Numbered from the stretch's first letter, positions 5,284 to 45,041 are shown. The stretch: DNA of 64,000 nucleotides from Lytechinus pictus (GCF_037042905.1 NC_087250.1:12154001-12218000), one strand, 5' to 3'. Notes: a model not told the origin generated them from the sequence alone. Numbers and translations: made by a program.

Positions 5284-5410
5284 ATAAGAATGTTCATAGA
5301 TTTCAAGGGAATTAGTTATGTAGAGAGCCATTTTACATGTACCGGTATCTCATCCTTCATATTTTGATCCTACTTATTTTACAGTCAGTTTGCCTGCTGA
5401 CCATTTAATT

Positions 5411-5788
5411 TCACAATACGGTGCGCCATCATTCGGTTGCAGTGAACGGGCCAAATTTCTAACTTCGGGGTCGACATCGATGCCCACAGGCAGCGCACAG
5501 TGCCAGTGTACAATGTGACTGTGATGCTTCAAAAATGAAGACCATATGGCAAGAATTGGCGAAAAACGTCTAAATTTCTCAAAGAAATATGTGGGCAAAT
5601 TTCTCTCCCTCCTACTGGACCTTAGTAAACAGCATATTCGGTCGAGTGGAGTTGGCCAGCTCTGAATAATCACAGGCATGAATGCACTTTAGTATTAGCA
5701 CACGCAACAGATTTCAATTTTTTTCCCATGAGGCATGGCGAATTACGGTCTGTCCGCTGCAACCGATAGATGGCGCACCGTATTGTGA
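5411..5788. mobile_element. MITE with CAC-starting terminal inverted repeats, just downstream of the TSSC4 stop
   Basis: TCACAATACGGTGCGCCATC..TCGGTTGCAG at 5411 is mirrored by CTGCAACCGATAGATGGCGCACCGTATTGTGA ending at 5788. Confidence 0.75.
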
Positions 5789-6144
5789 TTCCACCGAATT
5801 GTCATATATATCACATTTACCATTTTGACTAATTTCCAATGAGGCTATACCCACTTTTGACACCAATTTATCTTTTAAAATTGTATTTAAATGAGAAGCT
5901 TATTTAAATTTTGTTTGACAAAGAAAGGGAAGTGGATTATTAGGCTTTAGACTGATAGTACCTTGGATGTTGTCTTGTAGAACATTTCGATCATTATTTT
6001 CAACTCCATGTAGGATTACCCCAAGGTTTGATTATAGAAGTGTAGTAGCCATTGATTCTGTTTTTAAGTACCGATTCTCTGTGAGAATGAAAGTATTCAT
6101 TTAGATATCTAGCATCCTCCCTCTGATACATGTATGTAAATTCT

Positions 6145-6750
6145 TTAAACTGGGATTCATCCTTGGTCATTAATGTTGTGTGGGAAGGAGAACAATAAAT
6201 AAAACAGAATGGTGAGAGTTTGAAAGAAATCAGACAAGCAATAGGAAACTTATGGCTACCATACTTAAAAATTGAGATCCCTAAGACTGCAATTTTCCAA
6301 TTTGCGACTGGGTAAATGAATTATGCAGGGGTAAGGACAACTTTCCCATAGGCCATTTACTTTATTCTCAGGGATTTGTGGTTGTCTCCCAAGTTCCCAT
6401 TCCCCTGGGGCAGTAATCTAATTATATCCCAGGTTGCATATTTTATGTCCTCTTGAAATTAAAATATAATTGGAAGTAAAATTGTTCAAAAAATGAAGTT
6501 TTAGCCATTACATGTATTTGTATTGGAGTACATGGAAGAGTAGTCCTTAATACCTTACATCACTATGATATCACAAATGAGGCCGGCCAATTTTAAGTCT
6601 CCATTGGGATATTGATTACCAATTTTTACAAATTTTAAAAATACATACGTGTAAATTTCTTATTGTTTGTCTGATATTATTCAAACTTTCCCCTATTAAC
6701 TTGTCTGATTTTTTTATCTCTTTCCTCTAAAAACAAAAAAAGGCCCCTTG
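6145..6750 (-). mobile_element. TTAA-flanked (Kolobok-type) MITE, inverted paralogue of 50775-51383
   Basis: Internal sequence (GGACAACTTTCCCATAGGCCAT, CCCCTGGGGCAGTAATCTAA) is the reverse complement of the 50775-51383 copy. One end is degraded. Confidence 0.7.
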
Positions 6751-6804
6751 AGCAAAAAAAAGTTACTGAATATCAGAAATCTATAGACAAAGATTATTCC
6801 TTGA

Positions 6805-7677
6805 TTTTTGTCTCACCTGCGAAGCAGAGTGAGACTATAGGCGCCGTTTTTCCGACGGCGGCGGCGACGGCAGCAGCGTCAACACCAAATCTTAACCATA
6901 GGTTACGTTTTTTTAATGACAGCATAACTTAGAAAGTATATGGACCTGGTTCATGAAACTTGGCCATAAGGTTAATCAAGTATTACTGAACATCCTGCCT
7001 TAGTTTCAGGTCACATGACCAAGGTCAAAGGTCATTTAGGGTCTTTGAACTTAGACCATGTTGGGGGAATCAACATCAAAATATTAACCTAAGGTTAAGT
7101 TTTTTAAATGTCATCATAACTTAGAAAATATATGAACCTAGTTCATGAAACTTGGACGAAAGAGTAATCAAGTATCACTGAACATCCTGTGCGAAATTTC
7201 AGGTCACATGACCAACATCAAAGGTCAATGAACTTTGGCCATAATGTGGGTATCTGTTGAATTACCATCATAACTTCGAAAGCTTATGGATCTGATTCAT
7301 TAAACTTGGACAAAAGAGTCATCAAGTATCACTGAACATCTCATGCGAGTTTCAGGTCACATGACGAAAGTCAAAGGCCATTTAAGGTCATTAAACTTTG
7401 GCAATTTTAGAGGTAATTATTAGATTGCTGTTATAACTTTCAAAGTCTATAGATATAGTGTATAAAATGTGGATATAGGGGTAATCAAGTATCACTGACA
7501 AGTTTAAGGTCACATGATCAAGGTCAAATATCAATGAACGTAGTATTGTATCATTATATGAATAGTGTTTTTTGTGAATAATTATTTTATAGTACATGTA
7601 GTTTTCAAAGTCAGCACTACTGCTATGTATATTGAATCGCGTGATGCAGGTGAGACCACCAGAGGCATTCCACTTGT
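6805..7677 (+). mobile_element. Helentron/DINE-1-like non-autonomous element with internal tandem repeats (copy 1)
   Basis: T-rich start, subterminal inverted motif TCTCACCTGC...GCAGGTGAGA, a short GGC microsatellite and ~4 units of a 150-190 bp repeat containing AGGTCACATGACCAAGGTCAAAGGTCA. An inverted paralogue lies at 26854-27837. Confidence 0.7.
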
Positions 7678-9169
7678 TAGTTAGCCCTTTCCATGCTTTG
7701 GAATAGGATTTGTACAATAAGATAGAACATTCAGATATTTTATTTAGATCGCAAACCTGATCAAATGCAATCTTATATAAAACTGCAACATTTATACTTT
7801 TAAACAAATTCCATGCTAGTACATACATGTATCCCCCACCTTGTAACTGTTGTAGGGTATATACAGTGTGTCCCACAAAAAATATTAGTGGGACTAGATG
7901 GGTATAATATTAAAATTACTACATTGTATTGTTTATATTTTTACACCCATAATATAAATTTCATTTTCTACATCTGGATTTATTTTATGTGATATAATCC
8001 GCTTTAATATCACAAAAATACGACAATTTGTTCATTGCACAGTAGGAAACCCCTCCATCCAAGTTTTGTATTAAGTAATATGTGTAGTCAGGATCATCAT
8101 CAGCTATTAAACAAGATTTGTTATCCATCCAAGTGGTGAAAATTATATGTATTCTTGTTCAGACATTGGCGTTAATCTGTAAGGATTTTCTTTAATTTGT
8201 TCAGGACTTGGGGATGATCTATTCATTCATTCCCTCTGATGAATAAATGAGATCAAGATAAGATCATAGATTCATGGGGGGGGGGGGCACTTACATTGAC
8301 GAGTAGATACCATGCGCGACCAAAAAAACACGTAAAAGGATGTCTTTTTTAAGATAGGGCATGTTACGTATGTAATGTAAAATTTTAGGGTGTCAAAAAC
8401 ACTAAAATAATGAAAAAAGGGTACATGTCTGTATTTCGCTAGGAAAGCTACATGTTTAGGGTCAAATTTGCGAGGGTATTAGAAAAGACTAAAATGTTTT
8501 ATTAAGAATGTACTTTCTGCCCCAATAGTCAACACTACATTTTAGAGTCCGATTTGCGCGAGTTGTGGGTGGGGCCGTACTAAACCCAATGATGGGGCAA
8601 GCTTTACAATCATTTCAAAAGCATAATGAATTCAAATAGTGCTAGAAAAAATTTGGGATACACCAAACATTAAAGGCTACGGGCTTTGATATATTTGTAC
8701 ATATCACAGGAAATTGATGGTCATTACATGTCTATTTTAATGGAAGAATTATCAGGTTGATGTGCTAAATAAAAGCTTCTGTGAAGTATGTATAAAATAA
8801 TGCCTTGTATTTTTACGTTATTTATTATAAAAATGTGTTAATTTGACCCTTTTTATCAGAACTCTAAAATATAAATTTACTAGTGTTATGATGTCCATGG
8901 ATGTGTCTTTTAGCATACCAGCCATAACTGCATGGGCTGTGGAATACTTTCAAGTTTTTGTTTATTTATTTTTCATTATTATTATTTATGTATATATTTT
9001 TCATTATTATTATTTATTTATATATTTATTATTATTATTTTTTGTTGAGGGGAGGGGGGAACATGCATAGATAACAATTAGATGGTACATTTCCTGATTT
9101 TTTTTTTACAAAAAAGTGTGGGGGGGGGGGCTTAATTTGCTGAAGCAATTTTCCTCTTAAGTTCTCTAA

Positions 9170-9720
9170 TTATCCACTCTTCTCTCTCTCTTACTTTCAT
9201 CCCTTTATCTCTCTATTCTTTCTTTATGCCTCTCAGCTTGCTCCCTCTTCTATTTTCAAAATAAAAATCTGTTGTCTTCATTTCTTTCCTCCCTTTATCT
9301 CTCAATTCATGTTTCTCTCTCTCACACTTCTCACTTTTTTTCAATTTCTATCTCCTTATCTTTCATCCCTTTTCTATTCCCCTCTCTTCAGTTTTCCCCT
9401 CTAGTCTTCTCTGTCCCACACATTCTTTCATTCTCTTTCATTTCTCCCTTTTCCAACCTCTATCTTCCTATGTTTCGTATCTTCATTCTCCTATTCCCCC
9501 TCTCTCTCTTTAGTTTGCCCCTCTCTTCTTTTCTCTACAAATTCTTTCATTATCTCTCTCACTTCCCCCCTTTTTCAATCTCAATCGCCTTATCTTTCAT
9601 CTCTCTATCCTTTTATTCCCCTATCTCTCTTCAGTTTGCCACTCTTTTATTTTCTCTGTCCCACAAGTTCTTTAATTTTCTTTCTCTCTCTCACTTGTAC
9701 TTTTTTTCAATCTCAATATA
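9170..9720. repeat. CT-rich low-complexity tract with an internal duplication
   Basis: Polypyrimidine sequence. 9315-9430 resembles 9555-9685 (TCTCTCACTT...CCTTATCTTTCATC...TCTCTTCAGTTT...CTCTGTCCCACA). Confidence 0.8.
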
Positions 9721-11847
9721 AATAGTAGACTTTTCATTGGTTTTGTGTTTCATGGTTCTGAATGTACATTACGTTGTACTCTAGGCTTAATATGATTATA
9801 TCAAATTAAAAAAGAGTAAAATTCACTGAGAAAAGTTCTGATAACAACGTTATTGAATTTCAAAGTTTAGCAATATTTTGTGAAAACAGTTATGCACATC
9901 ATGAATATTCATTATGTGGGCTGATGATGTCACATCCCAACTTTATCTTAAGTTATTACATGAAATAATCATTATTTCATATTTTCAAACCATGGTATGG
10001 TACATGTATGTCTCCCTCATAAAATAAGGTTGCAGTATTGAATATCTACTACAGTTGTCAAACATTTCTTTTTTTTCTTGGATGATAAAATTTGAATAAA
10101 CACAAATTCATATAATAAAATACAAAACGGGTGGGAATATGACATCAGTTTGCTCATTCAATATTCATGTAGACATGCAATAAACTGTTTCTCTGAAATA
10201 ATGCAAAACTTCATTATTCAATGTCCGATTTTGAGGAAATTTTCAGTGTTTTGGTCGTCCGATTTTTCATTAAATCTGTTCAAATCATATATTTTCACCA
10301 TGGAGTACTCCTTTTAACTACAAGGTAGATAATTCCACACACAAACTCAAAAGGGCTTACATTTTTCTTTTACAATATCCACATACATGTATGTGCATTA
10401 TTATTGCCAATTTGAAAATTCTTTACAGACATACAGAATACAGGACAATTGCAAACTTCCCTTATATAAGCCAATACTTGACGAGAAATGGCTATTTTAA
10501 GCTAGATTACATGATTTTGATAGTTTAAGGATGTACTTGAATTTTTATCGTAGATTAATCAGCAGATACAACTTAATTAGCTAGAAATCATTATTTCAAA
10601 CTACTCTATGTAATGTTTGATAATTGAAAAAAATTGTTAAAATCTAAATCTATCATTATAGCAGGCCTGTACAAATCAACTATGAAGTATTATTTCAAAC
10701 TGATTTACATAATTGTTAACAATTGAAGAATTTACTTGAAAAATCTAATTTCTATCATTACAGCAGCATACCAATTGACAAAATTTGTAATAATTGAAGA
10801 ATTGACTAAAGTTGACATTTCTTATACAAAATACTAATGCATTGTTTCTATGGCACGATTCTCAAATTTATGAACATCTATAATAAAATTAAAAAATTGC
10901 AAAAATGACAAAAGTATGATCACTGACTGCAGTTCAGATATCACTGAATCATTACATTATACATCCCCTCCTCAAACTTGATAAAACATAATTTTTAAGG
11001 CTAATCTTAGCTTTATAATTAAGCCTACGCCTCAGTAAATATAGGCAACAGTCCTATAATTTTTTACTTGAGTATACCATTCCTACATCAATCAGTATTT
11101 GCCCTTCATTTTTTTTTAATTGCACTTAAAAATACAACTATTTTTTGCAACGGGCCTCCTCAGGACTTCTTTTCATGATTGGCTGGCCAAGGACCACTGT
11201 TGCTATGGTAACAACAAATGAATGGTGATTTTCGAACTCATAACCACATATATACACCTATGGGCATACATGTACACCAACACATTTTCCTATTATACAT
11301 AAACTCCTTTTATAGATACATAATTCCCAATTTATATCTGGAAAATTTAGATGATTTTGTTCAAAAATAGGAAAAGCAGCATTTTCAATAGAATTGCAGA
11401 GAATTTATCAAGAAACATAGGAAATATATATATTTTGAAACAAAGATGTCGAAACAACATTCATATTCTTACTAAAAATTCAGAATGGTTAAGACGGCTG
11501 TTGATATACATGTATCGATGCAAAGAAGGATTTTATAGCAAAGCTGAAAAATATAAAAAGCAGGACGTTTCAGTACTACTCTTCAGGACATGGATAGCAC
11601 TATCAAAACAGTCCTACAATTTCAGAACATAATATTTGGTTTAAAAACATAAAATTAACTTGAGATGCAGCATAAAAAAACAATGGTTTTAAAATAATAC
11701 AATCAATGTTACAAGAGCACCACACCAAGCCACCAGTGTTAAGTGTTTTAGTTCAGCACTAATTGTTACACCAACTGGTGCCCTCATAGCACATTGTTTA
11801 TTAACACAATTAGGTGTTAAAACGTTAACACTAAATAGCATATTTTT

Positions 11848-12198
11848 GTAAAGGAGAAGTCCACCACAACAAAAAGTTGATTGGAATAAAAAGAGACGAA
11901 TCCAACAAGAATAACACTGAAAATTTCATCAAAATCGGATGTAAAATAAGAAATATTGTATATTTCAAACAATAAAAAAAAAAGAAACAGTGAGTGAGGG
12001 ACATCATCGACTCTCTCATTTGCATGTCACTGAGCAGTTCATAAGTATTTGTGAAAAATAAGCAAAATCTTTAAAAATGTTTTAACTTTCTTATTCTAAA
12101 TCTGATTTTGATGAAATTTTCAGCGATTTACATGTACCTGTTTGATTGTTCTCTATTTATTCAAATCAACATTTTTCTGGGTTAGACTTGACCTTTGA
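11848..12198 (+). mobile_element. Internally deleted TTAA/Kolobok-type MITE (family of 13818-14428)
   Basis: Starts AAAGGAGAAGTCCACC, ends GACTTGACCTTT and shares CACTGAAAATTTCATCAAAATCGGATGTAAAATAAG with the 13818 copy. Confidence 0.7.
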
Positions 12199-12971
12199 CC
12201 CCTGTGGGAGCGGTCCTCGAACAGCCACTGGTGCTGACATTAACACTAAAATCTTACAGTGTAAAAAAATGAAATAAAAATAATGACAATATATAAGCGT
12301 AAGCATTGTAGTCTTCTTTGCACAATATTACATTAAATAACGGGAAATGAGATGTACTTTAATAATAATAATAACATAGTAATTTATAATTAGCGCAAGA
12401 CATGAAGCTGTACATACATGTATCTTAGCGCTTGCAGATTTTTTTACAAATAAAAAAATAATTTTACGAGTGAAACTAAACAATAATTATTTTTAAAAAA
12501 ATTTGGCAAAGGATTTGATCATAAAATCTTAAGTCATTTTATGAGTGACTTGGCTGATCACTGGTATATTAAACCATTTTAGAAATATTGGACAAAAATT
12601 TGGCTTACAATTTGGCTCTAATTTCAGAATTTTTCTTGGTTATATACTAATCCATCGTACTATGATGCTATCCTAAATAAAAAGAGCAAAATATAACCAG
12701 CAAGACTACTACATGTATATAGAAAAAGGAAATGAATAAAATCATCAATTTTTATTTAGCGTACAGTTAAGTCTCTTAGCGCTCTTAAATGGTAGTGAGA
12801 AAGAAGGATAAAAAGTCATATTGAAACTAAAAACATTATACAAATTTTGAGACTGAATTCAGGGAATTTGTCCCCTTCCGTAGTCTCCTTTAAATCTCTA
12901 TACAAATATCTCATCAAATATACAACGTAACTTCTGAAGGTTTTCATGGTGAAGAAAAGAGTAGTACTGTT

Positions 12972-13149
12972 GGTTTCACGGTACACCATGTATCTTTCTT
13001 GGGCAATTATTGGTCCTGAAAAGGACCACCGAAAATCAAAGTTTTGACAAGTGTGTTCTTGTCGTCTTCAGGAGAATCGGAGTTTGGGTGTTCATTTTCA
13101 GGACCAACAATTGCCAAAGAAAGAAAGATATATGGTGTACCGTGAAACC
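12972..13149. mobile_element. Fold-back element with ~50-bp arms
   Basis: GGTTTCACGGTACACCATGTATCTTTCTTGGGCAATTATTGGTCCTGAAAA is mirrored by TTTTCAGGACCAACAATTGCC...ATATGGTGTACCGTGAAACC. Confidence 0.75.
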
Positions 13150-13817
13150 TACTACACTAAAATGTATAACATTATGCTCTATGGCTTGCTGGGGGTGCTT
13201 GAATAATATTAAAGATATTTCTAACTTGCACCAGGAAATTACACTGCAGGTGTGATCTTAAGAAAATGAGATTTTTTAGACCAAACATGCCAGGCGCAAG
13301 CTAGAAATACCTGGTATATACATGTACATTAAAGGAATTTCCCCTAGGATATAAGAGTGCGCTGTTTAGGTGGTATACGAACACACTGCAGAGAGCGCCA
13401 GCTGCCCATTGACAACAACGTTATATGACACTTGCGCAGATGCCACGTTCCAACCTCTGACACAGTGCTTCCACTCTTCCAGGAAATTCCAGGAAGTTTT
13501 GCTATTTTCCAGGAAGTGAGAAATTCCAGGAAGTTACCATTTCCGGGAATGACATTATCTGAATATTATGTCAAACTACATCATAAAATCGGATCTTTGT
13601 AATTAAAATGTCAACATTTTTCGCTCGCTTGCAACTCTTTACTAAATTTTGCCCGATACGTCATATTTCGCCCCCTCAAAATTTTTGGCTCATTACGGCA
13701 CTGGGCCCTTTTTGTCTAGAAGAGAATTATAACATCTCATGGAAGAATGGAGAGCATTTGTAAAAATTCCAGTGGAAAAATGGAAGCACTGCTCTGACAA
13801 TTCTTAGTCGCGTATGC

Positions 13818-14428
13818 TTAAAGGACAAGTCCACTCCAACAAAAACTTGATTTGAATAAAAAGAGGAAAATTCAACAAGCATAACACTGAAAATTTCATC
13901 AAAATCGGATGTAAAATAAGAAAGTTATGACATTTTAAATTTTCGCTTTATTTCACAAAACAGTTATATGCACATCTCAGACGGTATGCAAATGAGGGAA
14001 CTGATGACCTCAATCACTCACTATTTCTTTTGTATTTTATTATATAAAATATGAAATATTTTGATTTTATCGTCATTGTCATGTGAAATGAAACTTCATT
14101 CTTCCCTGAACACGTGGAATTCCATTATTTTAACATATTGTGCTTCAGGCAAGGAGGTCCTAATCATCAAATTCGTAAAAATTGAAATATTGCATAATTC
14201 AAACAATAAAAAACAAAAGAAATAGTGAGTGAGTGACATCATTGACTCTCTCATTTGGATGTAACTGGCTCGTTCATATAACTATTTTGTTAAAAATAAG
14301 CGAAACTTTGAAATGTCATGACTTTCTTATTTTACATCCAATTTTGATAAAATTTTTAGCATTGTGCTTGTCTGATTTTTCTCTATTGATTCAAATCAAC
14401 ATTTTTCTGAGGTGGACTTGACCTTTAA
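13818..14428 (+). mobile_element. Complete TTAA-flanked (Kolobok-type) MITE
   Basis: TTAA|AGGACAAGTCCAC ... GTGGACTTGACCT|TTAA with long imperfect TIRs. An inverted paralogue lies at 36788-37379. Confidence 0.8.
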
Positions 14429-14599
14429 GCTGCTGTTCGAAGATCCTGGCAGGATGGCTCTGCCTCATGCCGTGTGAAATGATGTCAGCAGATGTCCGAG
14501 CCAGCGCCGATGTAGCCAAAAGCAGCGCAGCATATGCGTACCGAGCACGTGCTACATGACTGGCAGATAATTGAAAGCTGCATGCAAATGAGAGAAAAA

Positions 14600-14850
14600 A
14601 AAATGAAAATCAATATTTCTTATTGTGCGAAATAGAAATCTAAAATAGTTATACTCCAAAAATTAATTTTGCCCAAATGGTCATGAGCCCGGCAGCCACC
14701 GTGCAGCGCCAGATCGACGTAAATGTAGCTCTATCACTTACATCGTTGACCGTTAAACAGGGTAGCAGCAACTCCCATCTTTTAACGTCTTTTGGTCTGA
14801 CGCGGCTGGGGCTTGAACTCCCAGCGTACACCCTACCAACTAAGCAAACA
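14600..14850 (-). mobile_element. tRNA-derived SINE (MetaSINE-like central domain)
   Basis: Minus strand reads A-box/B-box head, then GTCAGACCAAAAGACGTTAAAAGATGGGAGTTGCTGCTACCCTG. The 3' part is shared with 57625-57863. The domain assignment is from memory. Confidence 0.65.
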
Positions 14851-15817
14851 TACTGGTTGATAAATGCATCATTGATCTTTGTAATGAAGATGGCGGCGAG
14901 TGCAGCATGCAGTAAATCCGCCCAACAGCGCACTCTCAAGTTCACATGATCTATACCTTTCACATACAGCACACTCTTAAAAAGACATAAAATGTAACCA
15001 ACCACCCCATAACCAACAATAGGTCGCCCAAAACAAATTTTGATATTTTTATTAAATTTGAATAAGCACATCCTAGTAAGCTTTAAAATGATATATGATT
15101 TGTCAAACGTGATCAACAATTAGTCACTCAAATACAGAGAAAACAAAGCGAGAGCTTCAGAAAATAAAGAGAAAATAGTGTTTTAAGTTGGTATTCACTC
15201 AAGCAATCTATGTGCACACTACAATTTCTATGAAACTTCCAAGCAGTCCTTCAAAACTTGTGTTCAAAGAAACTCTTGCATCTTGTTTTCTATTCAAATT
15301 AACAACTCGAAAGTTTTTGAGTGTAAAGATTGGCCTGTTTGCTGCAACCAATAGATGGCACACCATATCGCGAACCCACCGAATTAACGTACTTTTAATT
15401 TTGTGCATACTCCAGTATATGTGACAACTGTGAATTAACTCCACAAATGAAGATCTATTCTATAGTGCGTACAATGTAAGTTCACATACATGTACATGTA
15501 CTTAGCAAAATACACAACCATACGGGTGAAGGGACGGACTAAAATCCAATCAGTACGTGATTTCTACAACTTCTGACTATTAAACTATACGGCAGTATTC
15601 TAATGAACGGAATACACACATACATATAGACATCGAGAGATCACACACATGGTGCATTAATCGCAGCGCTCAAGGTTAAAGATTTCTAAAGGCCTGTTCA
15701 CAAATGGTGCAACAAATCTCAACGACAAAGCTTTATCAAGGTTGAACACACATCGCAGCAGCTGTATATTTTGGGTCTGGTAAAAAAGATGAAATAAAAT
15801 AGCGACCCTGTTATGAT

Positions 15818-15972
15818 AGGTTTATCGCTAAGAGCCGCAATGCGTTATGGGATCGAAAAGGAGGCAATCAAGCTAGCTCCGCGCACTACAGACAGTGCGC
15901 ATGTGCAGAGATAGCTAACAGCCCCCTTTTCGATCCCATGATGCATTGCGGTTCTGATTAGCGATAAACCTT
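15818..15972. mobile_element. Short hairpin MITE
   Basis: AGGTTTATCGCTAA.AGCCGCAATGCGTTATGGGATCGAAAAGG is mirrored by CCTTTTCGATCCCATGATGCATTGCGGTTCTGATTAGCGATAAACCT. Confidence 0.75.
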
Positions 15973-16036
15973 ATTATTTTTACATGATAAGGTCGGTTGG
16001 AAAAGGGCAACATCTTTTTTAATTCTAGGCCTTATT

Positions 16037-22718: not shown

Positions 22719-22854
22719 CTAAAGTGGAATAAGAAAAAATAAGAAAATGTATGTAATTATCATCATCATCACTAAATATCATCATCATTATCATCATCAC
22801 CATCATCATCATCATTATCATCATCACCATCATCATCATCATCATCACCATCAC

Positions 22855-34800: not shown

Positions 34801-37800
34801 CGACTATAAATAAACATGTCAATGTCATATACTGTACATGTATCCTTTGAATTACTATATCTCTAAATGTTTTAGATTTATAAAATAAGTGAAGATTTGT
34901 CATAATTTCGGTCACACACGTGACCAAGAATGGCTCTGATTATTAATGTTTATTTTCCTCGCAATGTATCTCTGATTCATTATTATAATAGCATTGGGTA
35001 GCATTGAATATTGTTACGAAGAGAAAGCCATAACCCCATTATGATTAATACTACATATAATCATTTATTACTTTTTATCATTATTCTTACCATAATAATA
35101 ATAGGCATTTATATAGCGCCATCTACCTAGAAATATTATATTCCGAGGCGCGATGTTATTATTAATATTACCCTGGCTTTAGCTCGAGCTGCCTTTCAGC
35201 ACTCATGCATTCAAGGAATAAATCCTGCTGGGTACCCATTCACCTCACCTGGGTCGAGTGCAGCACAATGTGGATACATTTCTTGCTGAAGGAAATTATG
35301 CCATGGCTGGGATTCGAACCCACGACCCTCTGTTTCAAGTCAGAAGACTAATCAACTGGGCCATAACGCTGCACAATTATAATCTTCATCATTATCATTA
35401 ATATTTTTACTATGATTACAATTATTAATATTATCATTATCATCAATAATTTTATTTTTATCATTATCTTACATCATCATTAAAAATATTAATTTGGAAA
35501 AGTATAATTACCTTGAGCTGACGGCACTTTTGTACCTGTTTAACAAAGAAACAAAATAAAAGAGAGAAATTGAAACATATTTTATAGTGGAGATAATTAG
35601 GTCCCAGAGAAAGAAACATTCATGAAATCAACATCATAGAATAAGTGGACTTTGACTGAATGACTAATTGTTTGATTGATCATTGTTTTTATTGTTTGAT
35701 TGAACGATATACCTGATAAACTGATCATTTGCAGACTGATATAATTGTTAAATAGTCAATTTATTGACTACTTGGAGATTATTTGATAGAATGCCCGATT
35801 TGAATACTTGATGATTTCTCTAATTGATTGCCTGATTGATTCGTTATTTGGAGATTGTGTGGAATGAATGTCTGATTCATTGATTGATGGAATCCCTTGG
35901 AAATACACTGGCCACAAAATGGCAAGTTATTTCACTGTGCTCGGTGGAAGGGATCATTGAATAGGCCTAGTGTCATAATGAACCAAAAATCTTGAGGAGG
36001 GCAGATACATCTATGGCATACTGGGCAAAATTTCTAAAAAGTTGCGAGCAAACAAATCAGTTGAGCAAACATTTTGACATTTTTAATATTACAAAAATCA
36101 AATTTTGTGATAGATTTTGACATACTGTAATATCCAAAAGATAATATCATATGTCACCCTTCTCTTTTTCCTTTTTTTTTCTTGTAAATGATTTTTTCCT
36201 TCGGAGGGGGGGGGGGGCCCCAACCCTCCCCCCATAATCTACGCCACTGTTCATGCCCACTGTATGTGTTGATGATATTGACCATTTTTAAATAAATGAC
36301 AGACACATTTTCATGAACAGATTCTTACTTTAACTCCTTTTTTTAAGATTGCATTTAGTTACTTAAGTACAAGGTAAGACGTTAAATGTAGGCTTAAAAG
36401 TTTGGCATACATGTACATGTACATGTATGCTATCAAACTGTGTCAGCTTGTTATAAACTTGACAAATGAATTATGATTTATGCACAATTTTTAATGATAC
36501 ATCAATGTATACCCTGATTCCCATAAAACTTGGGTCACGTCCGACTCACAAGTTTACAGGTTATTTGCATATGTGCCAGACAGTATGAGAGTTACATTAT
36601 TTTATGGCCTTAAGAAACATGACAGCAAATACCATGAAGGGCACAGCCCCCATCGGCCCATCCTCTATTTTTTCCCCCAATTTTTTAAGTACATGTAAAT
36701 GTAATATCATTAAATGTACATGCAAACTATAAAAAAGAATTGCTGAAACATCAATAGCATACATGTAATATGATTTGGGTACTCTATTTAAAGGTCAAGT
36801 CCACCCAAGAAAAATGTTGATTTGGATAATTAGAGAAAAATAAAACTAGCATAATGCTGAAAACTTCATCCAAATCGGATGTAAAAAAAGAAAGTTATGA
36901 AATTTAAAGTTTCACTTATTTTTTTACAAGACAGTTATATGAACTACTCAGTGACATGCAAATGAGACAGTGGATGATGTCACTCACTCACAATTTCTTT
37001 TGTTTTTTATTGTTTAAATTATACAATATTCCATTTTTACAGAATTGACAATTAGGACAAACTTGACTGAACCATATCAAACAATGCTTATTCCACATGT
37101 TCAGGGTGGAATTCATGTTTGTTTCACTTGACAATGAGGAGAAAATTATTATGTCATATAATGAAATACAAAAGAAATAGTAAGTGGATGACTTCATCAG
37201 TCTCCTCATTTGCATACCAACCAGGATGTGCATGTAACTGTGAAATTAAACGAAACTTCAAGATATCATAACTTTCTTATTTCACATCCGATTTTGATGA
37301 AATTTTCAGTGTTATGCTTGTTGGATTTTTTCTCATTTTATTCAAATCAACTTTTTTTTAGGGTGGACTTGTCCTTTAAGCACCTACATGTACATGAAAA
37401 AAGAAAATATAAGGACCATTAGAAAAGTTTTTATGTGCATACTGTATGTTCCGGTATAGTAATAAAGATAACACCTCAGTAATGTGACAGTAAAGACCTA
37501 CAAGTATGCGACGAAAGGAATAATGAGTATTATTAGAAAAGTTTTTATGGGCATTTATTCTACATGTAGCACAGGTAGTAATAATGATAACACCTTGGTA
37601 ATGTGATGGTAGGGCTTAAATTGTAATAGAGGTAAATGTAGCATGATCACATGTACTGAAAGATACACGAGGAGTTTGAAGATAAATACATGAATAGGGT
37701 ATGAAATTATTTTTGCTTTTTAGGGGTTATCGTTTTCTCCACATATATCAGGGTGATTGCAGAATTTGGGGGGCTATTTCTTCCATTTTAAGGGCTTCTT

Positions 37801-40800
37801 TTTTATGCGTAACAAGCAGTTATGAAGTGAAAGCAAATATCATTATTCTGCCACAGTCATTTTTTGTTGTTGACATATATGTAGAATATTAATTATCTGA
37901 ATAATCTTGAATATAGTTTGTGACAGATCTTAGGGCGACTCTAGAAAGAATGGTGGCCCCAAAGCTTGCATTTTGTGGGGATTTTAAGGGCAATCTGGGC
38001 TATCGCCCTTATGTATTTCCCACCCTGCTTGGTGTTAAGAATACCTTTCAGTGTTGGTGTTGTTGAAATAAAAATGTGTTTTCAATGCGTATTATTGTTC
38101 AAATAACACTAAACTCTGGTGTAGAATGCTTGGTGTGCTGTTTTGAGGTTTACACAATCTTCGACTGACTTGAACAAAACAACACCACCTCTGCCCTGTA
38201 TGTAGCTCAAGCACTGAGTAATTACATATTTTTAAAGCTTCCCTTATTTGCACACGCACAGGTAAAATTTGTACTTTATCCAAATCATGAAAGAGCAGGA
38301 AATAATTTTCCTGGTATCGCATCGCAATTTGCTCCACATTTTTGAAAGACTGCTATGTATTAATAAGTCTTTTGTATAGCATATTTTTACATAGGACTGT
38401 ACACTAATGGTTGAGAGCTTTTCTCTTATGACCAAAAATGCTATTCAAATTTGTAAAGCAAAATTATTCCCTAAAGAGTCAATGAGTGATTTCAAGTTCA
38501 GTGTTGACCTTTTGGTGTTGGTGTTAGGTCATTTTTGACACAAGTATAACACCAAACATGAAATGAAGGTGGTCCTAAAAAGGTCACTCACTAGTTTTTG
38601 ATGTGTCAAAAAACTGTCAATAATGTGATCTGGATCAGTTTTACAAACTCAGAATAGGTTTTGGAGCAAGGGGAAGCAATCCAAATTGTGCTTCCAACAC
38701 CGATTTGTTTTGTCCTTTATGACATAGGCCTATGGATTTCGCCTCATCCTAATGTGAATTAAGGTTCGATTAAAACTTATCTCCTAGTGTTGTGTTGAGT
38801 AAACGCAATAACGTTACCCTTTAATAATTAAAACTGTAATAGTTGTAATAATTGCAAATAAGTAATGACCATTTTATAGGCTTAGATCCTTTTTACGTTG
38901 AAGTTCACAGTTCATATATTCATTGATGTTTTGTGATATATCTATAATTCGTGGACCCGGCCGCAGAGGATACTGTCTGTTGCTGTGCCGAGTTTGTAAG
39001 TCGATGTGCCGAGTATTATTGCCAAAATACCCCTGTGGTAGTGGATGGTTCTCCTTGGTCATGTTATTGTGATTATGGGATAATTTAGGTATACTTATGA
39101 TTAACTTACAGGATTCTGTTATCGTGGCTGTTATCCTTGCTATTTTTACATTTTCGTAACGACCATTTTATTTATAAATTTAAATTCATTAATATTGACA
39201 TTCTAAGTTAAGATGAAGTGACATCAAGTAGACCTATGTTATTCTATTATAATTGATCTTAAACCTTTTTGTTCATGCTCACTCTCTTATCCGCTTCTGT
39301 TTTATGTAAGCACCCACTGGATAGGGTCAAATGGTCTTTATTGACTATGTACAGTAATTCAGTTAACTTTATTTGACCCTGGCAGTCCAGTGGGTGCTCA
39401 ATATATACTCTGTTATGTTTATTATGTGTTGTACTACACTGTACCAATTTCTTATACTTTTCAATGCCGAAATAAATAATAATAATAATAACAAATTCTG
39501 AAAATCAATAACTTTCTTTATATTGTTTGTTTGAAAACTTTCACCGATATGATTTTCCTTTTTCCTCTATAAAAACAACTTTTTATTCAAGTTTAATTTC
39601 CCCTTAAACACAAATCAAGAGCATATAACTTTTGATAGAGCCTTGAATCTGCATTCCATTAAGTTTTTTACATACCTGTACCTTAACATTAATACCATTG
39701 ACTAATTTCAATTATAGGGGTAACAATTTACTACCAGCAGAAAATGAAAAATGAATAAATAAATACATTCCAGTTCAGTAAAGCTGATTAAAAAGTTTTG
39801 TGTGACATTGTCAACTTTTTAAAACAAATTATCATTTCATCTTGCACAATCTTTGTAATTTGAATCATTCAAAATAATACATTTAAATTATTAAAGCGCA
39901 TGAAAGATGAAATCAGGGGTGTGAGTGGGCACAAATAAAAAGATCTGAAAAAAGCTAAAGAGTGTTGAAAAAAAGCTGAAATAGAAAGAGCTCCCACATT
40001 TTTTGCACAGACTCAGAGGAAAACTAAAATGAACTGAAAGTAAGCTGAAAATCAAAACCCCAAAATATATGAAATCAGCTATTTAAAGGGGAAGTTCACC
40101 CTGAAGAAAACTTTGTTGAAAAAGTAGCAGAAAAAATAGTAAAAAATATAGGCAAAGGTTTGAGGAAAATCCGTTAAAGAATAAGAAAGTTATTAGAATT
40201 CAAAGTTTTGGATTTGTGACGTCATAAACGAGCAGCTGCCCCATGTGTTATGTATTTAAAATGCATGAATTTCAAATTTTGTATGGTTCCTGATGACTTA
40301 ATTTTGTTTTCTATTCATGATCGGGTGAAAAATGAATTGATTTGTCTATTGATATACAAAAGGTACAGTGAAAACCATTTTCAATTTTCTGAGAAAATGA
40401 CATTTCATTGATTATTTACCATTCGCTATGTAGGAATGCTGCTCGCATATGACGTCACAAATCAAATAATTGAAATTCTAATAACTTTTTATTTGATGAA
40501 TTTTTCTCAAACCTTCGGCAATATTTTTTATCATTTTTCTGCTATTTTTACAATAAACTTTATGTCAGGGTGAACTTCCCCTTTAAAAGCTGAACTCTCT
40601 CACCCCTGTATTGATTGTGGGGATTTTTCTGGAGATGTGGTGAACTATTAAGGGCATTCTACTTTGAACATCAGGTGCTCTAAAATAAATCAAAGCTACA
40701 ACTACATGTATAAAAATAACATTTTTTTTTTAAATCAAAGCAATGGTGCATTTCATTTATTTAACATTCATTAACACATTTTATTTGCATAGAATGACAC

Positions 40801-43800
40801 AATTAAAAATAAAAGTCTATAAAAGATAGACAAGTTAATAACCAATCTTCAATTGAAAAGCCATAGATCTGTGACAATATTTTTTTCTAAACCTGGTAGC
40901 TGTACATTTTGAAGTTTACCTGGTGCTTTGAATAAACTGGAAATGGCCTTGATTTTATTAAATCATTTTTTAAAGGCTGAATCTATTTACATGTACTTGT
41001 AATTAAATCAATCAAAGTGAAAAGATGAGGGTTATTTACTAATCAATCATGAATGCCATCAGTATAGACTTGAATAGATCAAATTTATTCAAGTCTATTT
41101 CTGTCCCCTTTTTTCCCTGATGGTACAATGGTAGTCTGTAACCCAGTAAGATAAATCTAAGTTTTAATTTTTTTTTTTTTTTGTGACTGCAGGGTGTTGA
41201 AATTTATAATGTACATGATGTGTGTGAACAGTCAGACGGCAGGTCCTAAGAAAGTGGCTTCTTTCATCCAAGTGATATTCATGACTTGAGATGTTTTGCA
41301 TATTTAATGAGCTTGATGCAGACCAAAACATCTCTTTTCATTCGGTCATTGCTGCTCTAATTGTGCATCGAATTTCATGAATTTGGTATCATTGTAAAGA
41401 AGATGAATCATTCTTTCAGGTCATGTGTTTGAATTTATTCAAAGATTTTGTAATGTAGGTTAAAATTTTGATCTAAAATATGCTACAAAATAATTATTTT
41501 CACCTGACAAAAGCTGCTATTTTCACACTTTATTTTTGTTTGAGCCCAAATGATTTTTAGATCATGATAAAGCTGAATATGTATGCTTTAAAATGATATA
41601 GGTTTCAAAATAAGAATTGGTTTAATCGGGTCAAGATCACACTTTTAATTTGCCAAGTACATAAAGCAGCTTGAAAACAAGAATACTGCACTCTGATCGG
41701 TCAAAGAGACCACACATTGGCAAATTCCAACGGTTCCAGTGCCTGGGTTCATGGGAAGGTCACACTTCCCATGTGGTAATATCCTCAAATACCCCGCGCC
41801 TGTTGTTATGTGAACCTTATCCAGCCAATCAGAACTCTGGATTTCATGCAAGTACAACATTTCAGAAATCTCGTCTTGTACCTTGGTGGGAAAAGTGTGA
41901 TCTTGACCCGATTAAAAGGTGCCGCATATCAGGAGTGGCATTGTGAGAAAGTACAGAAGTTCAGCTTTATGTTGATATAGATATCATTGAGGCTCAAAAT
42001 AAAAAGTTTTGCACAATTTGCAAAAGGAAACAGAGGAAGAAAATTCAGTTTTGAGGCACATTTTCAGGCCAGAAATTTACTTATTTAACAAAATATTGTA
42101 TACAAAATAAATGACCAATATGAAAGAGTAACATTTACTCTATCCGATGGTGCAATAATATTTCATTTAACTTGAGGTTAAAACAGGTAAATTCTTAGAG
42201 AAAGAAAATCTCACGAATCACGAGCAAGGAGGAGGATTCAGCCACGAGATGATTTGGATGAATCTGGCCTTTTTGCTCATTAGCATAGGGACCTGCGGTC
42301 TGACTGTGAAATGTGTCATGGATCTTGAATATCAAGCTTAGATTTTCTGACATATCAGCAGACAATGGCTCGATATCTCTGTTGTGTTTAATTTTCAACA
42401 TTATTCATAATCATATCCAAACTATTCCAAATTAATAATTTCCTGGCCTCTTTTCAAACCCCCTTGTGTTTGTGAAATTTCCTTGAGAAATTACGTAAAG
42501 CCATTGTTAGCTGCCAAGTAAGGAATCGTAAATGACTCCGTATTGAAATATCCGCTAACATATGTACAACTTAATGGCCCGTATTCTGAACTCGGGTTTA
42601 AGTTTAACTTAAACTCAGGTTTAAAGTTGTGGTTTAAGTATGGATAGCCAATCGTTACAAAAATCACTAACAATAGAGATATCATATTTCAGCTCATTTG
42701 GCTCTCAAATCATTCATAAAATTTGTCTAGGAAGTAAAATAGATGATTGTCTTCACCATTGAAGAATCAGGAAAGAGCACAGTAAATATAAGAAGCATGT
42801 GTTAACAACTTGAATTTTTTTTTTTCGTTTGGCTTCCCATAATTTTAGCACAGAGTTAGACCATGGTCTAAGTTAAACCTGACTTCAGAATACAAGCCAA
42901 TGTATCTGGCAAAGAGAATTTAATCAACTAAATTCTTGAGCATGCAATGATCCTTTTTTAAGCAAAAGAGTTGTCATACTTAACTAAATTTATGAAATGG
43001 ATATTATTCATGTTTTGCTACATGTATATACAAAATATCACTGAAAAACCCTGCAAATCACAATGTGCTATTTGCCAAATTGATCGCCTCATTTCAGGCA
43101 AGATTTGACGGAGTGATTTTTCACAATAAAATGGCACAACTTACTTCATTTCTAAACTTTGGTAATAATAATTACAAATTTTTCACTAGTCGTTGACTCA
43201 TGCAATTGATATTTTCAAGCAGGTTGAAAAATGACCTGCCACCCCGAAACCAATACAAAAGCTTTGATATATCTTTAGACTTGTGGCAACAGCGGCATAA
43301 CTGGGCACTGCCGGGGAAGCGTTCTGCAGTATTGCGGTCGTCACCCAAAATGCCCCTATAAGAGCCCTGGAAATTCCCAAATGATCCAAAACATGAATTG
43401 AAATACAAATTATTGAAACAAGATATTGATGATGAACTCAGAAAGTAGACCTGGGGTGTGTTTCACAAAGATTTAAGTATGACTTTACTTAGATTCATAC
43501 TTAAATGCCAAACGTGCAGTCTTATTGATCAATATGCAGTAGTGCTCATCCTATGTGCTGATGTCTTTAATACCAAGGACAACAAGGCATTTAAGTACGG
43601 CTCTAATATGCTTTTCACACTGCATTTTCTTAACCCCATACTATCCTTAACCCCGGACTATCCTTAACCCCATACTATCTGCTTAGCCGGGGTTAACGCC
43701 TTAACCCCGGACTATCCCACAGCTCATGAATATTGATGATTTTACCATATAGAGCGTGATTAACGTGCAATTTCGACTTCTGTGATTGGTTATTGCTTAG

Positions 43801-44202
43801 CCCCACTTTTCCTTAGCCCGGTTTCGTTTCACACTGCATCTCTTAGCACCGCAATTGTGGTGCTACATGTAGCACCACAATAAGCCGGCTAACCCTGCTT
43901 TTTTGCGGGGCCAGATAGTACCGTACTATTTACCGTGCTAGCCCACTTTGCTAAAACGTAGTGTGAAAACGAAGTGGGCTAAGCTTAACCCCGGGAAATT
44001 GGTGGGGCTAAGGCCCCCCCCCCCCTTAGCCCCACCAATTTCCCGGGGTTAAGGAGTAGTAGTGAAAAAGTAGTGTGAAAAGCATATAAGTCATACTAGA
44101 ATCGTTGTGATTTTTTTTTTTTGGGGGGGGAGGGGTTAATTCATTTACTACCCCAGACTCACCTGGTAATGAAGTTGCTGTTGAATTAGCTTGATCAATC
44201 AT
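22569..44202 (-). CDS. SLC39A14: ZIP8/ZIP14-like metal cation symporter (SLC39A, LIV-1 subfamily). Coding exons: 44202-44163, 35535-35512, 33904-33735, 26780-26655, 26011-25832, 25129-25073, 24355-24028, 23374-23187, 22718-22569. 420 aa.
   Basis: All introns are GT-AG with compatible phases (1263 nt in total). Motifs include VWGYG..LAVGTL.GNALL.LIPE, a His-rich loop [40 protein letters not shown] (E instead of H, typical of ZIP8/14), [21 protein letters not shown] and [13 protein letters not shown]8 versus ZIP14 orthology cannot be resolved here. The first two exons are less certain. Confidence 0.88.
22752..23140. repeat. (CAT/CAC)n microsatellite filling the last ZIP intron
   Basis: Visible imperfect trinucleotide repeat of about 390 bp. 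Confidence 0.95.
23187..23374 (-). CDS. SLC39A14: ZIP8/14-like exon ([10 protein letters not shown]...LYISLVDM)
   Basis: TTTCAG| acceptor, ATG|GTGAGT donor. Encodes TM5-TM7. Confidence 0.92.
24028..24355 (-). CDS. SLC39A14: ZIP8/14-like exon (His-rich loop, TM4, EEFPHEL)
   Basis: ACTCAG| acceptor after a poly-T tract, G|GTGAGT donor. Confidence 0.92.
25073..25129 (-). CDS. SLC39A14: ZIP8/14-like cytoplasmic-loop exon ([19 protein letters not shown])
   Basis: TTGTAG| acceptor, AAG|GTAAGT donor. 57 nt, phase 0/0. Confidence 0.7.
25355..25491. mobile_element. CAG-flanked short MITE (GGGAGCRTTTCAT TIR family)
   Basis: CAG|GGGAGCATTTCAT...ATGAAACGCTCCC|CAG. Relatives at ~32418-32552, 32871-33040, 57867-58025, 59760-60103 and 62302-62456. 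Confidence 0.7.
25832..26011 (-). CDS. SLC39A14: ZIP8/14-like cytoplasmic-loop exon (ARSRSSSDL...EKRASRE)
   Basis: ATACAG| acceptor, GAG|GTTTGT donor. 180 nt, GC-rich and open, phase 0/0. Confidence 0.75.
26120..26265. repeat. Degenerate ~15-bp minisatellite (TAGACCAAATGGTAG-like)
   Basis: Recurrent T(A/G)GAC(C/G)A..TG motif at roughly 15-16 bp period. Confidence 0.6.
26655..26780 (-). CDS. SLC39A14: ZIP8/14-like TM3 exon ([37 protein letters not shown])
   Basis: TTACAG| acceptor, AGG|GTGAGA donor. Contains the WK...LGGIYLFF..E motif. Confidence 0.9.
26854..27837 (-). mobile_element. Helentron/DINE-1-like element with ~5 internal tandem units (copy 2)
   Basis: Reverse complement of 6805-7677 with one more internal unit. 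Confidence 0.7.
28135..28535. mobile_element. TTAA-flanked MITE
   Basis: TTAA|AGAGAAATGCCAGT ... ACTGGCATTTACCT|TTAA. Confidence 0.75.
28690..29527. mobile_element. Two inverted copies (28690-29004 and 29220-29527) of a ~310-bp MITE; third copy at 42576-42898
   Basis: TIR GGCCCGTATTCTGAA. The internal AACTCAGGTTTAAAGTTGTGGTTTAAGTATGGATA is shared by all three copies. Confidence 0.85.
29991..30211. mobile_element. MITE with internal telomere-like TTAGGG degenerate repeats
   Basis: Subterminal repeats CGACATTTGCTC / GAGCAAATGTCG flank AGGGTTAGGGTTAGG...TTAGGATTAGGGTT. Confidence 0.6.
33735..33904 (-). CDS. SLC39A14: ZIP8/14-like TM1-TM2 exon ([13 protein letters not shown]...[10 protein letters not shown])
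   Basis: TTTCAG| acceptor, GAG|GTAAGT donor. 170 nt. Confidence 0.92.
33944..34933. mobile_element. MITE (TIR CCATTCTTGGTCACGTGTGTGAC) with a nested TTAA-flanked MITE at 33991-34582
   Basis: Outer arms at 33944-33990 and 34887-34933. Inner element TTAA|AGGAGAATGAAAC...GTTTCATTCTCCT|TTAA has a partial relative ending at 17762. Confidence 0.8.
35095..35372 (-). mobile_element. tRNA-derived SINE
   Basis: Minus strand has B-box GGTTCGAATCCC, central GACCCAGGTGAGGTGAATGGGTACCC and a GCGCTATATAAATGCC-(TAT)n tail. Confidence 0.75.
35512..35535 (-). CDS. SLC39A14: ZIP8/14-like 24-nt microexon (GTKVPSAQ)
   Basis: Pyrimidine tract plus AAACAG| acceptor and AAG|GTAATT donor. It supplies the PS...VWGYG junction typical of ZIP8/14. 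Confidence 0.7.
36788..37379 (-). mobile_element. Complete TTAA/Kolobok-type MITE
   Basis: TTAA|AGGTCAAGTCCACC...GGTGGACTTGTCCT|TTAA. Inverted paralogue of 13818-14428. Confidence 0.8.
40083..40586. mobile_element. Complete TTAA/Kolobok-type MITE
   Basis: TTAA|AGGGGAAGTTCACCCTGA ... TCAGGGTGAACTTCCCCT|TTAA, with perfect terminal repeats. Confidence 0.85.
41228..42308. mobile_element. Non-autonomous DNA transposon with a nested MITE at 41622-41915
   Basis: Outer TIR ACAGTCAGACGGCAGGTCC / GGACCTGCGGTCTGACTGT. Inner perfect TIR TTAATCGGGTCAAGATCACACTTTT / AAAAGTGTGATCTTGACCCGATTAA. Confidence 0.75.
43607..44086 (+). mobile_element. PIF/Harbinger-type MITE with TAA TSD, nested in an older MITE (~43453-44110)
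   Basis: TAA|TATGCTTTTCACACT ... AGTGTGAAAAGCATA|TAA with internal TTAACCCC/TTAGCCCC repeats. Confidence 0.8.
44163..44202 (-). CDS. SLC39A14: Putative first coding exon of the ZIP8/14-like gene ([14 protein letters not shown]); the exon probably starts at 44368
   Basis: ATCATG start and strong CAG|GTGAGT donor in phase 1, matching the microexon. In-frame upstream TGA and a TTTTTAACAG acceptor at 44370-44369. Confidence 0.6.
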
Positions 44203-45041
44203 GATTACAGTTGCCTCTAGTCCTTTCCCTCTCAGAAAAAAAAAAAAGAATCTCACGTAGACCCCGGCTCAGGTCTGGATAGTGTATGAGGAAAAAAGAT
44301 AGTACAGCGGACTTGCGGCTACAGCCTACAGGTAGAGTGGCAGTCTGGCAGACGCTAATGTGATGGTGCTGTTAAAAAAAAAGAGACAATTTTGATAATA
44401 ATGTTTTGGGTCTAATTACATTTTTATAGCGCTTAAGAGTGCAACGTGCATTACAATTACATTAAGAGAAAATACTTACAGTGAAACAAAACAAATGCAA
44501 AAAAGTACTTGCAAGAAATGACTAAAGTCAAAGATTAAAAATTTTAATCTTCATTTGCATAAAACATGTAGGCCTAGATCTATATTTAAAACGTACATTA
44601 TCGTCAATACAGCAAGTGAAAGAAATCAATTCTCCTAACAATCAACCATGAATGATCAAATCATGAATAAGAAATCGGTAGTGAAACCATACAAAATAAA
44701 AGGAGACAACTTGAGTCTACTCTATATCTTCATGATCTTGAAAGCAATCTACAGCCAGCCCACAGGATCACGTAAAGAAGCAATTTGTGTCCATGCCAGA
44801 CTCTTCAACTACATCACTGCCTAGTAGTAGTACATGTAAAGTAACATGGTAGATCAAAGACAAAGTCTTTATTGACTTGATATCTAATAGTAATACAGAT
44901 GGAGTTGAGAAAATGAATGTTGATCATGCGATCACTCAACTTGAGTGATCGCATGATCAACATTCATTTCAAGTGCAAAATTCTAGACAATCTTTTCTAC
45001 TGCAAGTGCATGAACTGAAGGCAGACATGATACCGCCTTAC

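Follow-up and report, generated by a model that had tools for sequence, protein, structure and literature searches.

TA-flanked octamers around a ZIP14-like gene of Lytechinus pictus as probable excision footprints of Tc1/mariner elements

This study concerns the octamer TACATGTA in a 64,000-nucleotide stretch of the genome of the sea urchin Lytechinus pictus (C6:12154001-12218000 of the 811.7-Mb assembly), referred to below as the window. An earlier note on this DNA had described the octamer as confined to one 40-kb domain and had proposed that its copies are footprints of transposon excision. The sequence surrounding the window was assembled into 264 kb; all regional statistics are based on these 264 kb, and negative coordinates denote positions to the left of the window.

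Three genes occupy the region in which the octamer is common. The first, which is leprecan/P3H-like and lies on the minus strand, spans the interval between about -2.3 kb and -55.5 kb or beyond. It is followed on the plus strand by a TSSC4-like gene at 4324..5283, which consists of a single exon with a 319-aa open reading frame (ORF), encodes a protein identical to a recorded one (PF15264; Pfam TSSC4, 3.5e-13), is free of the octamer and forms the left border of the domain. The third gene, on the minus strand at 22572..44202, encodes a ZIP14-like metal transporter (protein P0001, to which its source gives the name ZIP14-like of Lytechinus pictus). Its coding exons, mapped with tblastn, are located at 44202-44161, 33908-33735, 26783-26646, 26014-25832, 25129-25067, 24358-24020, 23375-23130 and 22712-22572. 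Just past the 3' end of this gene, a 75-base unit is repeated about 12 times in tandem (21043-21917), and this array is open as a 273-aa frame. The TSSC4-like and ZIP14-like genes are convergent, and the stretch between their stop codons (5284..22571) contained 60 ORFs of at least 55 aa, none of which matched a Pfam family, a search that short exons would escape. To the right of the ZIP14-like gene, an octamer-free stretch (44839..64000) with a CpG observed/expected ratio (o/e) of 0.84 contains an MFS transporter ORF on the minus strand (54611-56306).

An exact word count identified 50 copies of TACATGTA in the window, against a mean of 1.50 in 100 dinucleotide-preserving shuffles (standard deviation = 1.07, largest = 4), none of which reached 50. 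Forty-eight of these copies lie in 5334..44838, giving a density of 1.2 per kb in the domain and 0.78 per kb in the window as a whole; two lie to the left of the domain and none in 44839-64000. Within the domain, the octamer starts at 5334, 6127, 6509, 7593, 7824, 10001, 10384, 11267, 11507, 12129, 12415, 12710, 13319, 15487, 15493, 16304, 16669, 16887, 16965, 18116, 18407, 19702, 22072, 22324, 23580, 23610, 23616, 25736, 29525, 29741, 29946, 30600, 30781, 31152, 34619, 34835, 36408, 36414, 36420, 36690, 36760, 37385, 37561, 40703, 40988, 43019, 43864 and 44831. The estimates that the earlier note had made by eye, namely about 48 copies in the domain, one or two expected by chance and none from 45 to 64 kb, agree closely with these counts; it had reported a single copy to the left, at 885, and had overlooked a second at 3204.

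Several sites are compound. Double tandem forms, TACATGTACATGTA, occur at 15487..15500 (starts 15487/15493) and, in an intron of the ZIP14-like gene, at 23610..23623 (starts 23610/23616), and a triple form occurs at 36408..36427 (starts 36408/36414/36420), all as the note had listed them. Two further sites are stacks of two kinds of octamer that have a TA in common. At 5334..5347, 51 bases past the TSSC4-like stop codon, TACATGTA (5334-5341) runs into TACCGGTA (5340-5347) to give TACATGTACCGGTA, and at 885..898, TACATGTA (885-892) runs into TAGGCCTA (891-898) to give TACATGTAGGCCTA. The lone copy at 3204..3211 lies within the ORF region of a long interspersed nuclear element (LINE)-like sequence. 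This LINE fragment, located between the P3H-like and TSSC4-like genes, has a 450-aa open frame (1903-3255) with endonuclease domains of the endonuclease/reverse-transcriptase type (Exo_endo_phos_2 at 1.8e-11).

The unit of this enrichment is the full octamer: the inner hexamer ACATGT occurs 64 times in the window and is preceded by T in 53 cases and followed by A in 55. TACATGTA is the most frequent non-simple 8-mer of the window, and no other word discriminates better between the domain and the remaining 224 kb (48 vs 41 copies). The sequences flanking the 50 sites share no similarity, indicating that the field is not a single repeat family. Across the genome, 224,046 copies were counted in 812 Mb (0.276 per kb, or about one per 3.6 kb), whereas about 19,000 would be expected by extrapolating the chance expectation of the window. 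The excess is thus about 12-fold genome-wide, and what the window shows is a local high point in a feature spread over the genome.

One-mismatch variants of the octamer number 56 in the window against about 38 expected, beside the 50 exact copies against 1.5. From these counts a mean decay of about 4% can be roughly calculated, with a wide error, suggesting that the copies are neither brand new nor ancient. The earlier note had envisaged a single past burst; the one-mismatch variants suggest instead a spread of ages.

To examine how the octamer arises, we compared sites with paralogous sequences, which were alignable for 9 of the 89 TACATGTA sites in the 264 kb. All five sites aligned at 78% identity or more carry six extra bases, and three of these, at 7593, 68138 and -10423 (the last against four of its five paralogues), represent a clean change from TA to TACATGTA. 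The site at 7593..7600 was compared with a reverse-strand paralogue at 26854-27060 (84.3% identity over 758 columns), whereas at 6509..6516, compared with a reverse-strand paralogue at 50900-51130 (78.7% identity over 606 columns), the six bases are present with an ambiguous placement of the gap. At 7624..7629, the rare four-base form, TA to TATGTA, is seen against two paralogues. The site at 12129..12136, located in an arm of a foldback/MITE-like repeat (MITE, for miniature inverted-repeat transposable element), has a net gain of six bases over at least four paralogous arms and untidy flanks. The examples at 7593, 7624 and 6509 had been put forward in the earlier note as insertions, and all of them hold. 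In the indel spectrum of the 264 kb, the rotation class of ACATGT was the most frequent (6) among 84 six-base indels, which are non-independent in that one site can be aligned to several paralogues.

These comparisons bear directly on the idea that the octamer arises by point substitution, for example when a CpG in TACGTGTA, TACACGTA or TACGCGTA decays, or else from slippage within short CATGTA or TGTA repeats. The domain is CpG-poor (o/e 0.53-0.58), as decay would have it, and tandem forms exist, the 20-mer of the triple form recurring identically 449 times in the genome, so slippage may multiply an existing copy. However, the well-aligned paralogues all differ by six bases, and no same-length variant, as substitution would produce, was found among them; the putative CpG precursors occur 2, 0 and 0 times in the window. 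In addition, the dinucleotide-preserving shuffles already absorb any excess of CA and TG. The note had named an origin by point substitution, as seen in orthologous or consensus alignments, among the outcomes that would overturn its reading, and the alignments came out the other way. Together with the repeat-arm cases described next, which are length changes at TA in a repeat whose consensus lacks CATG beside two of its three TA sites, these results make substitution or slippage barely conceivable as the origin of the octamer.

The foldback/MITE-like repeat offered a larger series of comparisons. Its arms are about 260 bases long, occur mostly as inverted pairs about 100 bases apart and are present at about one arm per 11 kb; some genomic copies are 97-98% identical to a copy in the window, where arms lie at 11926-12196, 13820-14069, 14164-14426, 36790-37041 and 37140-37377. 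We searched the genome with two conserved anchors placed round a 21-base interior that contains three TA sites, allowing at most two mismatches in the 48-base signature. A first pair of anchors was without power, returning no arm at +6 and just 17 at consensus spacing. With the second pair, 21,113 arms were found at consensus spacing, and the consensus interior lacks TACATGTA. Longer arms comprised 140 with six extra bases and 167 with four. Among 100 listed arms of the +6 class, read by eye, an exact TACATGTA sits at one or another of the three TA sites in 37 (11, 7 and 19 cases, from many contigs), and about six more arms have one-mismatch versions of it there. The same TA sites carry TACCGGTA in two of these listed arms and TAGGCCTA in two others. 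The canonical four-base form TACATA was present in one of 100 listed +4 arms.

Judged from these alignments, TACATGTA is a derived six-base insertion at TA that has arisen recurrently and independently, and it is by far the most frequent such insertion. Both the paralogues and the repeat arms point to an ancestral or consensus state without the octamer, and in the derived state a TA stands on either side of the inserted bases, as expected of an excision footprint and as the earlier note had proposed. Beside these cases, a subfamily of arms has, at the first TA, TACACGTA in three copies and TACATGTA in one (C15:21014502, C19:7724494, C29:1017068 and C1:31614204), and a copy of this subfamily that already bore the insertion seems to have propagated afterwards.

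The internal structure of the insertion was examined by counting all 16 possible octamers of the form TA-XY-Y'X'-TA, such as TACATGTA, TAGGCCTA, TACCGGTA and TACTAGTA. In the 264 kb, the counts were 89 for TACATGTA (5.7 expected), 20 for TAGGCCTA (2.0 expected) and 4 for TACCGGTA (1.5 expected). Apart from TATATATA, which is a microsatellite, only TACATGTA and TAGGCCTA stand out among the 16 words. TAGGCCTA is probably a second type of footprint, left by elements with GG...CC ends. In the window it is found in unrelated contexts at 574, 891, 35962, 38725, 44569, 46530 and 49988, a distribution unlike that of TACATGTA. The mixed stacks with a common TA fit a "2 + 2" rule, in which two terminal bases of each element end would be kept between the copies of TA.

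The core CATG is constant at all 50 sites in the window and in the three TA contexts of the repeat arms, regardless of the flank. The flanks themselves show a mild and symmetric bias over 163 half-sites: T at position -1 is depleted (0.15 vs 0.32) and CA at -2,-1 is enriched (13% vs 7%, p = 0.004). Such a preference is as expected from a dimeric transposase choosing among TA sites. The octamer might also be a selected binding site or another cis-acting signal maintained in these gene regions. In favour of this, its sequence is perfectly palindromic, and copies are concentrated in three genes and their surroundings but missing from the exons of these genes. A binding site, however, would usually tolerate degeneracy, of which the one-mismatch counts given above show none comparable to the excess of exact copies. 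Furthermore, fresh six-base insertions are found at TA alone, in copies of a selfish repeat throughout the genome, and the tandem and mixed stacks have TA sites in common. We therefore consider a selected signal highly improbable.

Our preferred explanation, which we hold with considerable confidence on the basis of sequence, is that TACATGTA is the canonical excision footprint, or scar, of TA-targeting elements of the Tc1/mariner superfamily with 5'-CA...TG-3' ends. The alignments and repeat arms described above show the insertion of six bases at TA, its polarity and its independent recurrence, and elements that fit are present in the genome. On insertion, such an element would duplicate its target TA. 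On excision, the non-transferred strand would be cut two bases inside each end, a two-base stagger being established for Tc1 and Tc3, and each flank would be left with TA plus a two-base overhang. If end joining in the germ line then retained both overhangs, the product would be TA-CA + TG-TA, that is, TACATGTA, with a net gain of six bases. The stagger of two bases, the mode of repair and the identity of the families involved are inferred. Because the scar itself offers two TA sites, repeated insertion and excision at these sites would yield the tandem form TACATGTACATGTA and the mixed stacks TACATGTAGGCCTA and TACATGTACCGGTA. Since all families with CA...TG ends would leave the same octamer, scars of many families and ages may have added up to the roughly 224,000 copies in the genome.

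A different cutting geometry could produce the same word. A family with CATG...CATG ends, cut with a four-base stagger as in Minos-like elements, would leave palindromic CATG overhangs that anneal and are ligated without error. The predominance of +6 over +4 forms in the repeat arms (37 vs 1 per 100 listed) is what complementary overhangs of this kind predict. However, no element with TA-CATG ends is among the elements found, and the words that a four-base stagger would leave on the ends actually observed, of the TACACTTA/TAAGTGTA type, are not enriched (0-4 copies in 264 kb). Since TAGGCCTA and TACCGGTA also have the 2 + 2 form, three palindromic-ended families would be needed. We regard this geometry as improbable.

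Footprints of known transposons resemble the octamer in part. Minos leaves a six-base gain that consists of TA and four bases from one end and is non-palindromic. It is thus alike in its net gain of six bases, whereas the core of the sea urchin octamer is CA + TG, one dinucleotide from each end. The P-nucleotide footprints of hAT, Mutator and Transib elements are likewise small palindromic insertions at excision sites, but these palindromes copy the host flanks and vary from site to site, whereas the sea urchin core CATG is constant.

Tc1/mariner excision, according to PMC6943129, produces 3' overhangs, and non-homologous end joining (NHEJ) leaves footprints of two to four terminal bases between the copies of TA. 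The same source gives the Sleeping Beauty footprints as TACAGTA and TACTGTA, which are alike in consisting of TA, terminal bases and TA joined by NHEJ after a staggered cut. These scars are seven bases long and derive from three-base overhangs, and such words are not enriched in the sea urchin: in the window, 6 copies were counted against 4.15 expected and 5 against 3.62, with 0.07-0.12 per kb both in and outside the domain. Caenorhabditis elegans Tc1 and Tc3 are alike in duplicating TA, in having CA...TG ends and in leaving a terminal-dinucleotide scar between the copies of TA, as set out in PMC12632400 and PMC2874221; in the former, TATGTA or TACATA accounts for 78% of somatic excisions of Tc1. 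The scar of C. elegans Tc1 is thus mainly of the +4 type, whereas that of the sea urchin is a +6 that keeps both dinucleotides, is inherited and numbers about 224,000. The earlier note had expected TACATA and TATGTA as companion footprints, but these proved to be rare, at 1 per 100 listed +4 arms compared with 37 copies of TACATGTA per 100 listed +6 arms. No description of octamer fields of this kind was found in the literature searched, which most subscription journals lay beyond.

We further searched for elements that could have left such scars. The ends of the elements found were CACTAC, CAGTGC, CACAAC, CACTGT, CAACGC and CACAGA, so that, at the sequence level, the inserted bases match the terminal bases of elements resident in the genome. 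A genome-wide search for the Pfam domain DDE_3 scored 150 matches out of 729 candidates, most with near-identical scores and many with 364-aa open frames. A young Tc1-like family has copies of about 1.9 kb with about 99.5% identity between them, bounded by TA-CACTACTC...GAGTAGTG-TA in five copies. Its predicted transposase, a 342-aa ORF, matches HTH_Tnp_Tc3_2 (7e-19) and DDE_3 (4.7e-20) in Pfam, and the DD34E spacing of 34 residues was counted by hand. By its paired helix-turn-helix and DDE domains, its ends and its TA flanks, the family is classed as DD34E Tc1-like. Copies often form inverted pairs 0.8-1.9 kb apart, such as C4:487726(-)/489404(+), C10:17441027(-)/17442705(+) and C6:20053360(-)/20055005(+), and at loci L024, L027, L029 and L030 inverted partial duplicates lie within 3.4 kb. 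A match to TACACTACTC at 23442 was rejected as a chance match and not a trace of this family.

Nearer to the domain, a non-autonomous Tc1-type element of 829 bases, TA-CAGTGC...GCACTG-TA with a 58-base terminal inverted repeat (TIR), lies at -17091..-16259 (L012, C6:12134001-12144000). It sits in a TATG-TA-CATG context resembling an older scar, and four copies of TACATGTA lie within 220 bases to its right, in a small cluster between -20 and -16 kb. At least three further elements of the form TA-CA...TG-TA were found, at 161502-163592, 117075-117249 and -90616..-90442. An 861-base candidate, TA-CACAG...CTGTG-TA (49236-50100), is weaker, its TIR being only about 15 bases long. The element pairs 12982-13139, 59965-60075, -66752..-66510 and 129982-130231 were dropped because the inverted repeat continues past the TA or the flanks look like TTA/TAA duplications. 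The note had also listed elements remaining at 21019 and 52836; each proved to have one TA-CA end, with no matching right end in the 264 kb.

Several observations weigh against excision scars as an account of the octamer. The four remaining paralogue-covered sites were aligned at 66.7-73% identity, which is too poor for scoring. Among the 100 listed +6 arms, 63 carry other insertions, including 11 of a subfamily with a different interior (by our own reading). A blastn search located the young Tc1-like family nowhere in the 264 kb, so that no tie between this family and the domain is possible. Finally, +4 forms are rare here (1 per 100 listed) although C. elegans Tc1, with the same CA...TG ends, mostly leaves +4, indicating a repair outcome unlike that of C. 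elegans Tc1.

The distribution of scars was then examined over the 264 kb, where 78 of the 89 copies lie between -62,000 and +44,900, that is, in 107 kb that hold the three genes (0.73 per kb). The other 157 kb contain 11 copies, nine in the right-hand 119 kb (0.08 per kb) and two in the far-left 38 kb (0.05 per kb, from -100 to -62 kb). In 4-kb bins, scars depart strongly from the availability of TA (chi-square = 184 on 65 degrees of freedom), with a variance-to-mean ratio of 2.96; for control 7-mers the median ratio was 1.25 and the 95th percentile 15, the latter owing to tandem repeats. The local clustering over the 264 kb is real. Density is 0.34 per kb in the P3H-like gene body, where it is heterogeneous, and 1.53 per kb in the 6.5 kb past the furthest P3H exon identified. 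It is 1.39 per kb between the TSSC4-like and ZIP14-like stop codons (24 scars) and 1.06 per kb in the ZIP14-like span (23 scars, all intronic), and then falls to 0.00 from 44.9 to 64 kb and 0.09 per kb in the next 100 kb to the right. None of the mapped coding exons contains a site.

These values bear on the proposal that insertions were targeted to, or retained in, the chromatin of transcribed gene bodies, with the edge of the domain at the ZIP promoter. No more than about 640 bases indeed separate the right edge from the ZIP14-like gene's first coding exon, and the 78 sites in the three-gene 107 kb accord with the proposal, whereas half of the domain's sites (24 of 48) lie in the 17 kb in which no exon was found. 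A link to CpG content fared similarly. Scar density and CpG o/e are correlated (Spearman = -0.33, p = 0.007), but the correlation is modest and was obtained from autocorrelated bins, with control words giving values as low as -0.34.

Local hopping would explain the clustering otherwise: one or a few resident elements would have jumped repeatedly over short distances, leaving a scar at each stop, and the edges of the domain would be accidental. The 829-base element, with its small cluster, its older-scar-like context and the four adjoining scars, indicates that local re-insertion does happen, and the re-use of sites is evident from the tandem and stacked scars. Within the domain, 14 neighbour spacings fall between 170 and 300 bases against 5.0 expected, a number that none of 5000 simulations reached, for a range that had been noticed before it was tested. 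Local hopping is also described for Sleeping Beauty in PMC2874221.

However, hopping over a few hundred bases should appear as a decay of pair counts at short range, and no such decay is seen. Genome-wide, pairs of TACATGTA with gaps of 70-100, 170-200 or 230-260 bases were counted 6,424, 6,149 and 6,309 times, respectively, against 1,917 if sites were uniform (about 3.2-3.4 times). These flat counts do not reproduce the local spacing peak and argue against such hopping as the main cause, and a spacing of 170-300 bases was rejected as a general rule. Moreover, no credible TA-CA...TG-TA resident was found inside 5334-44838, and both edges of the domain lie at gene starts or ends. Repeated short-range jumping is, in our view, a rather unlikely cause of the pattern.

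The genome-wide pair counts also speak to the expectation in the earlier note that density would not be uniform. Density is indeed non-uniform, and the pairs listed for contig 1 recur in the same few stretches of tens of kb, but the clustering index is matched by a control word. Pairs of ATGTACAT at the same gaps number 1,119, 1,021 and 1,299 against 279 expected (3.7-4.7 times); this control consists partly of tandem scars, and repeats inflate both pair counts. The index is thus not specific, which weakens an account based on regional germline chromatin, as does the stretch from -100 to -62 kb, which is CpG-poor (o/e 0.63) and yet has few scars.

As an observation apart from the octamer, long G/C runs and triplet repeats are unusually frequent in the window (8-mers GGGGGGGG, 74 copies; CCCCCCCC, 40; AGTAGTAG, 72; CATCATCA, 59), with example arrays at 22.7-23.2 kb and 53.2-53.8 kb.

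Candidate causes for the confinement of scars include chromatin targeting or excision competence, local hopping and a haplotype-specific history. We lean toward regional differences in landing and leaving, set by chromatin that was active in the germ line over the long term, rather than toward short-range hopping. As a tentative extension, which we put forward as a possibility that is more doubtful than the excision reading itself, scar density may serve as a heritable fossil map of where elements landed and left in the ancestral germ line. Tc1-like elements would have been steered to, or freed from, germline-active units and their 3' flanks, and borders such as the bidirectional promoter region and the start of the ZIP14-like gene would appear as sharp steps in TACATGTA density. 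The scars, repaired uniformly to +6, would at the same time form a substantial class of germline indels, with about 224,000 events that total 1.3 Mb.

At single loci and for engineered transposons, excision footprints are well known from textbooks, whereas the octamers described here would constitute a natural record at genome scale. If the pattern of the domain is genome-wide, it would provide a readout, from sequence only, of ancestral germline transposon traffic and of echinoderm end joining, and it would reveal, for introns and gene flanks, a recurrent origin of six-base indels. The pattern would also have a practical bearing on Lytechinus pictus, in which Minos vectors, themselves of the Tc1/mariner superfamily, reportedly now serve stable transgenesis and whose genome contains endogenous Tc1-like copies by the hundred, nearly identical to one another and with open frames.

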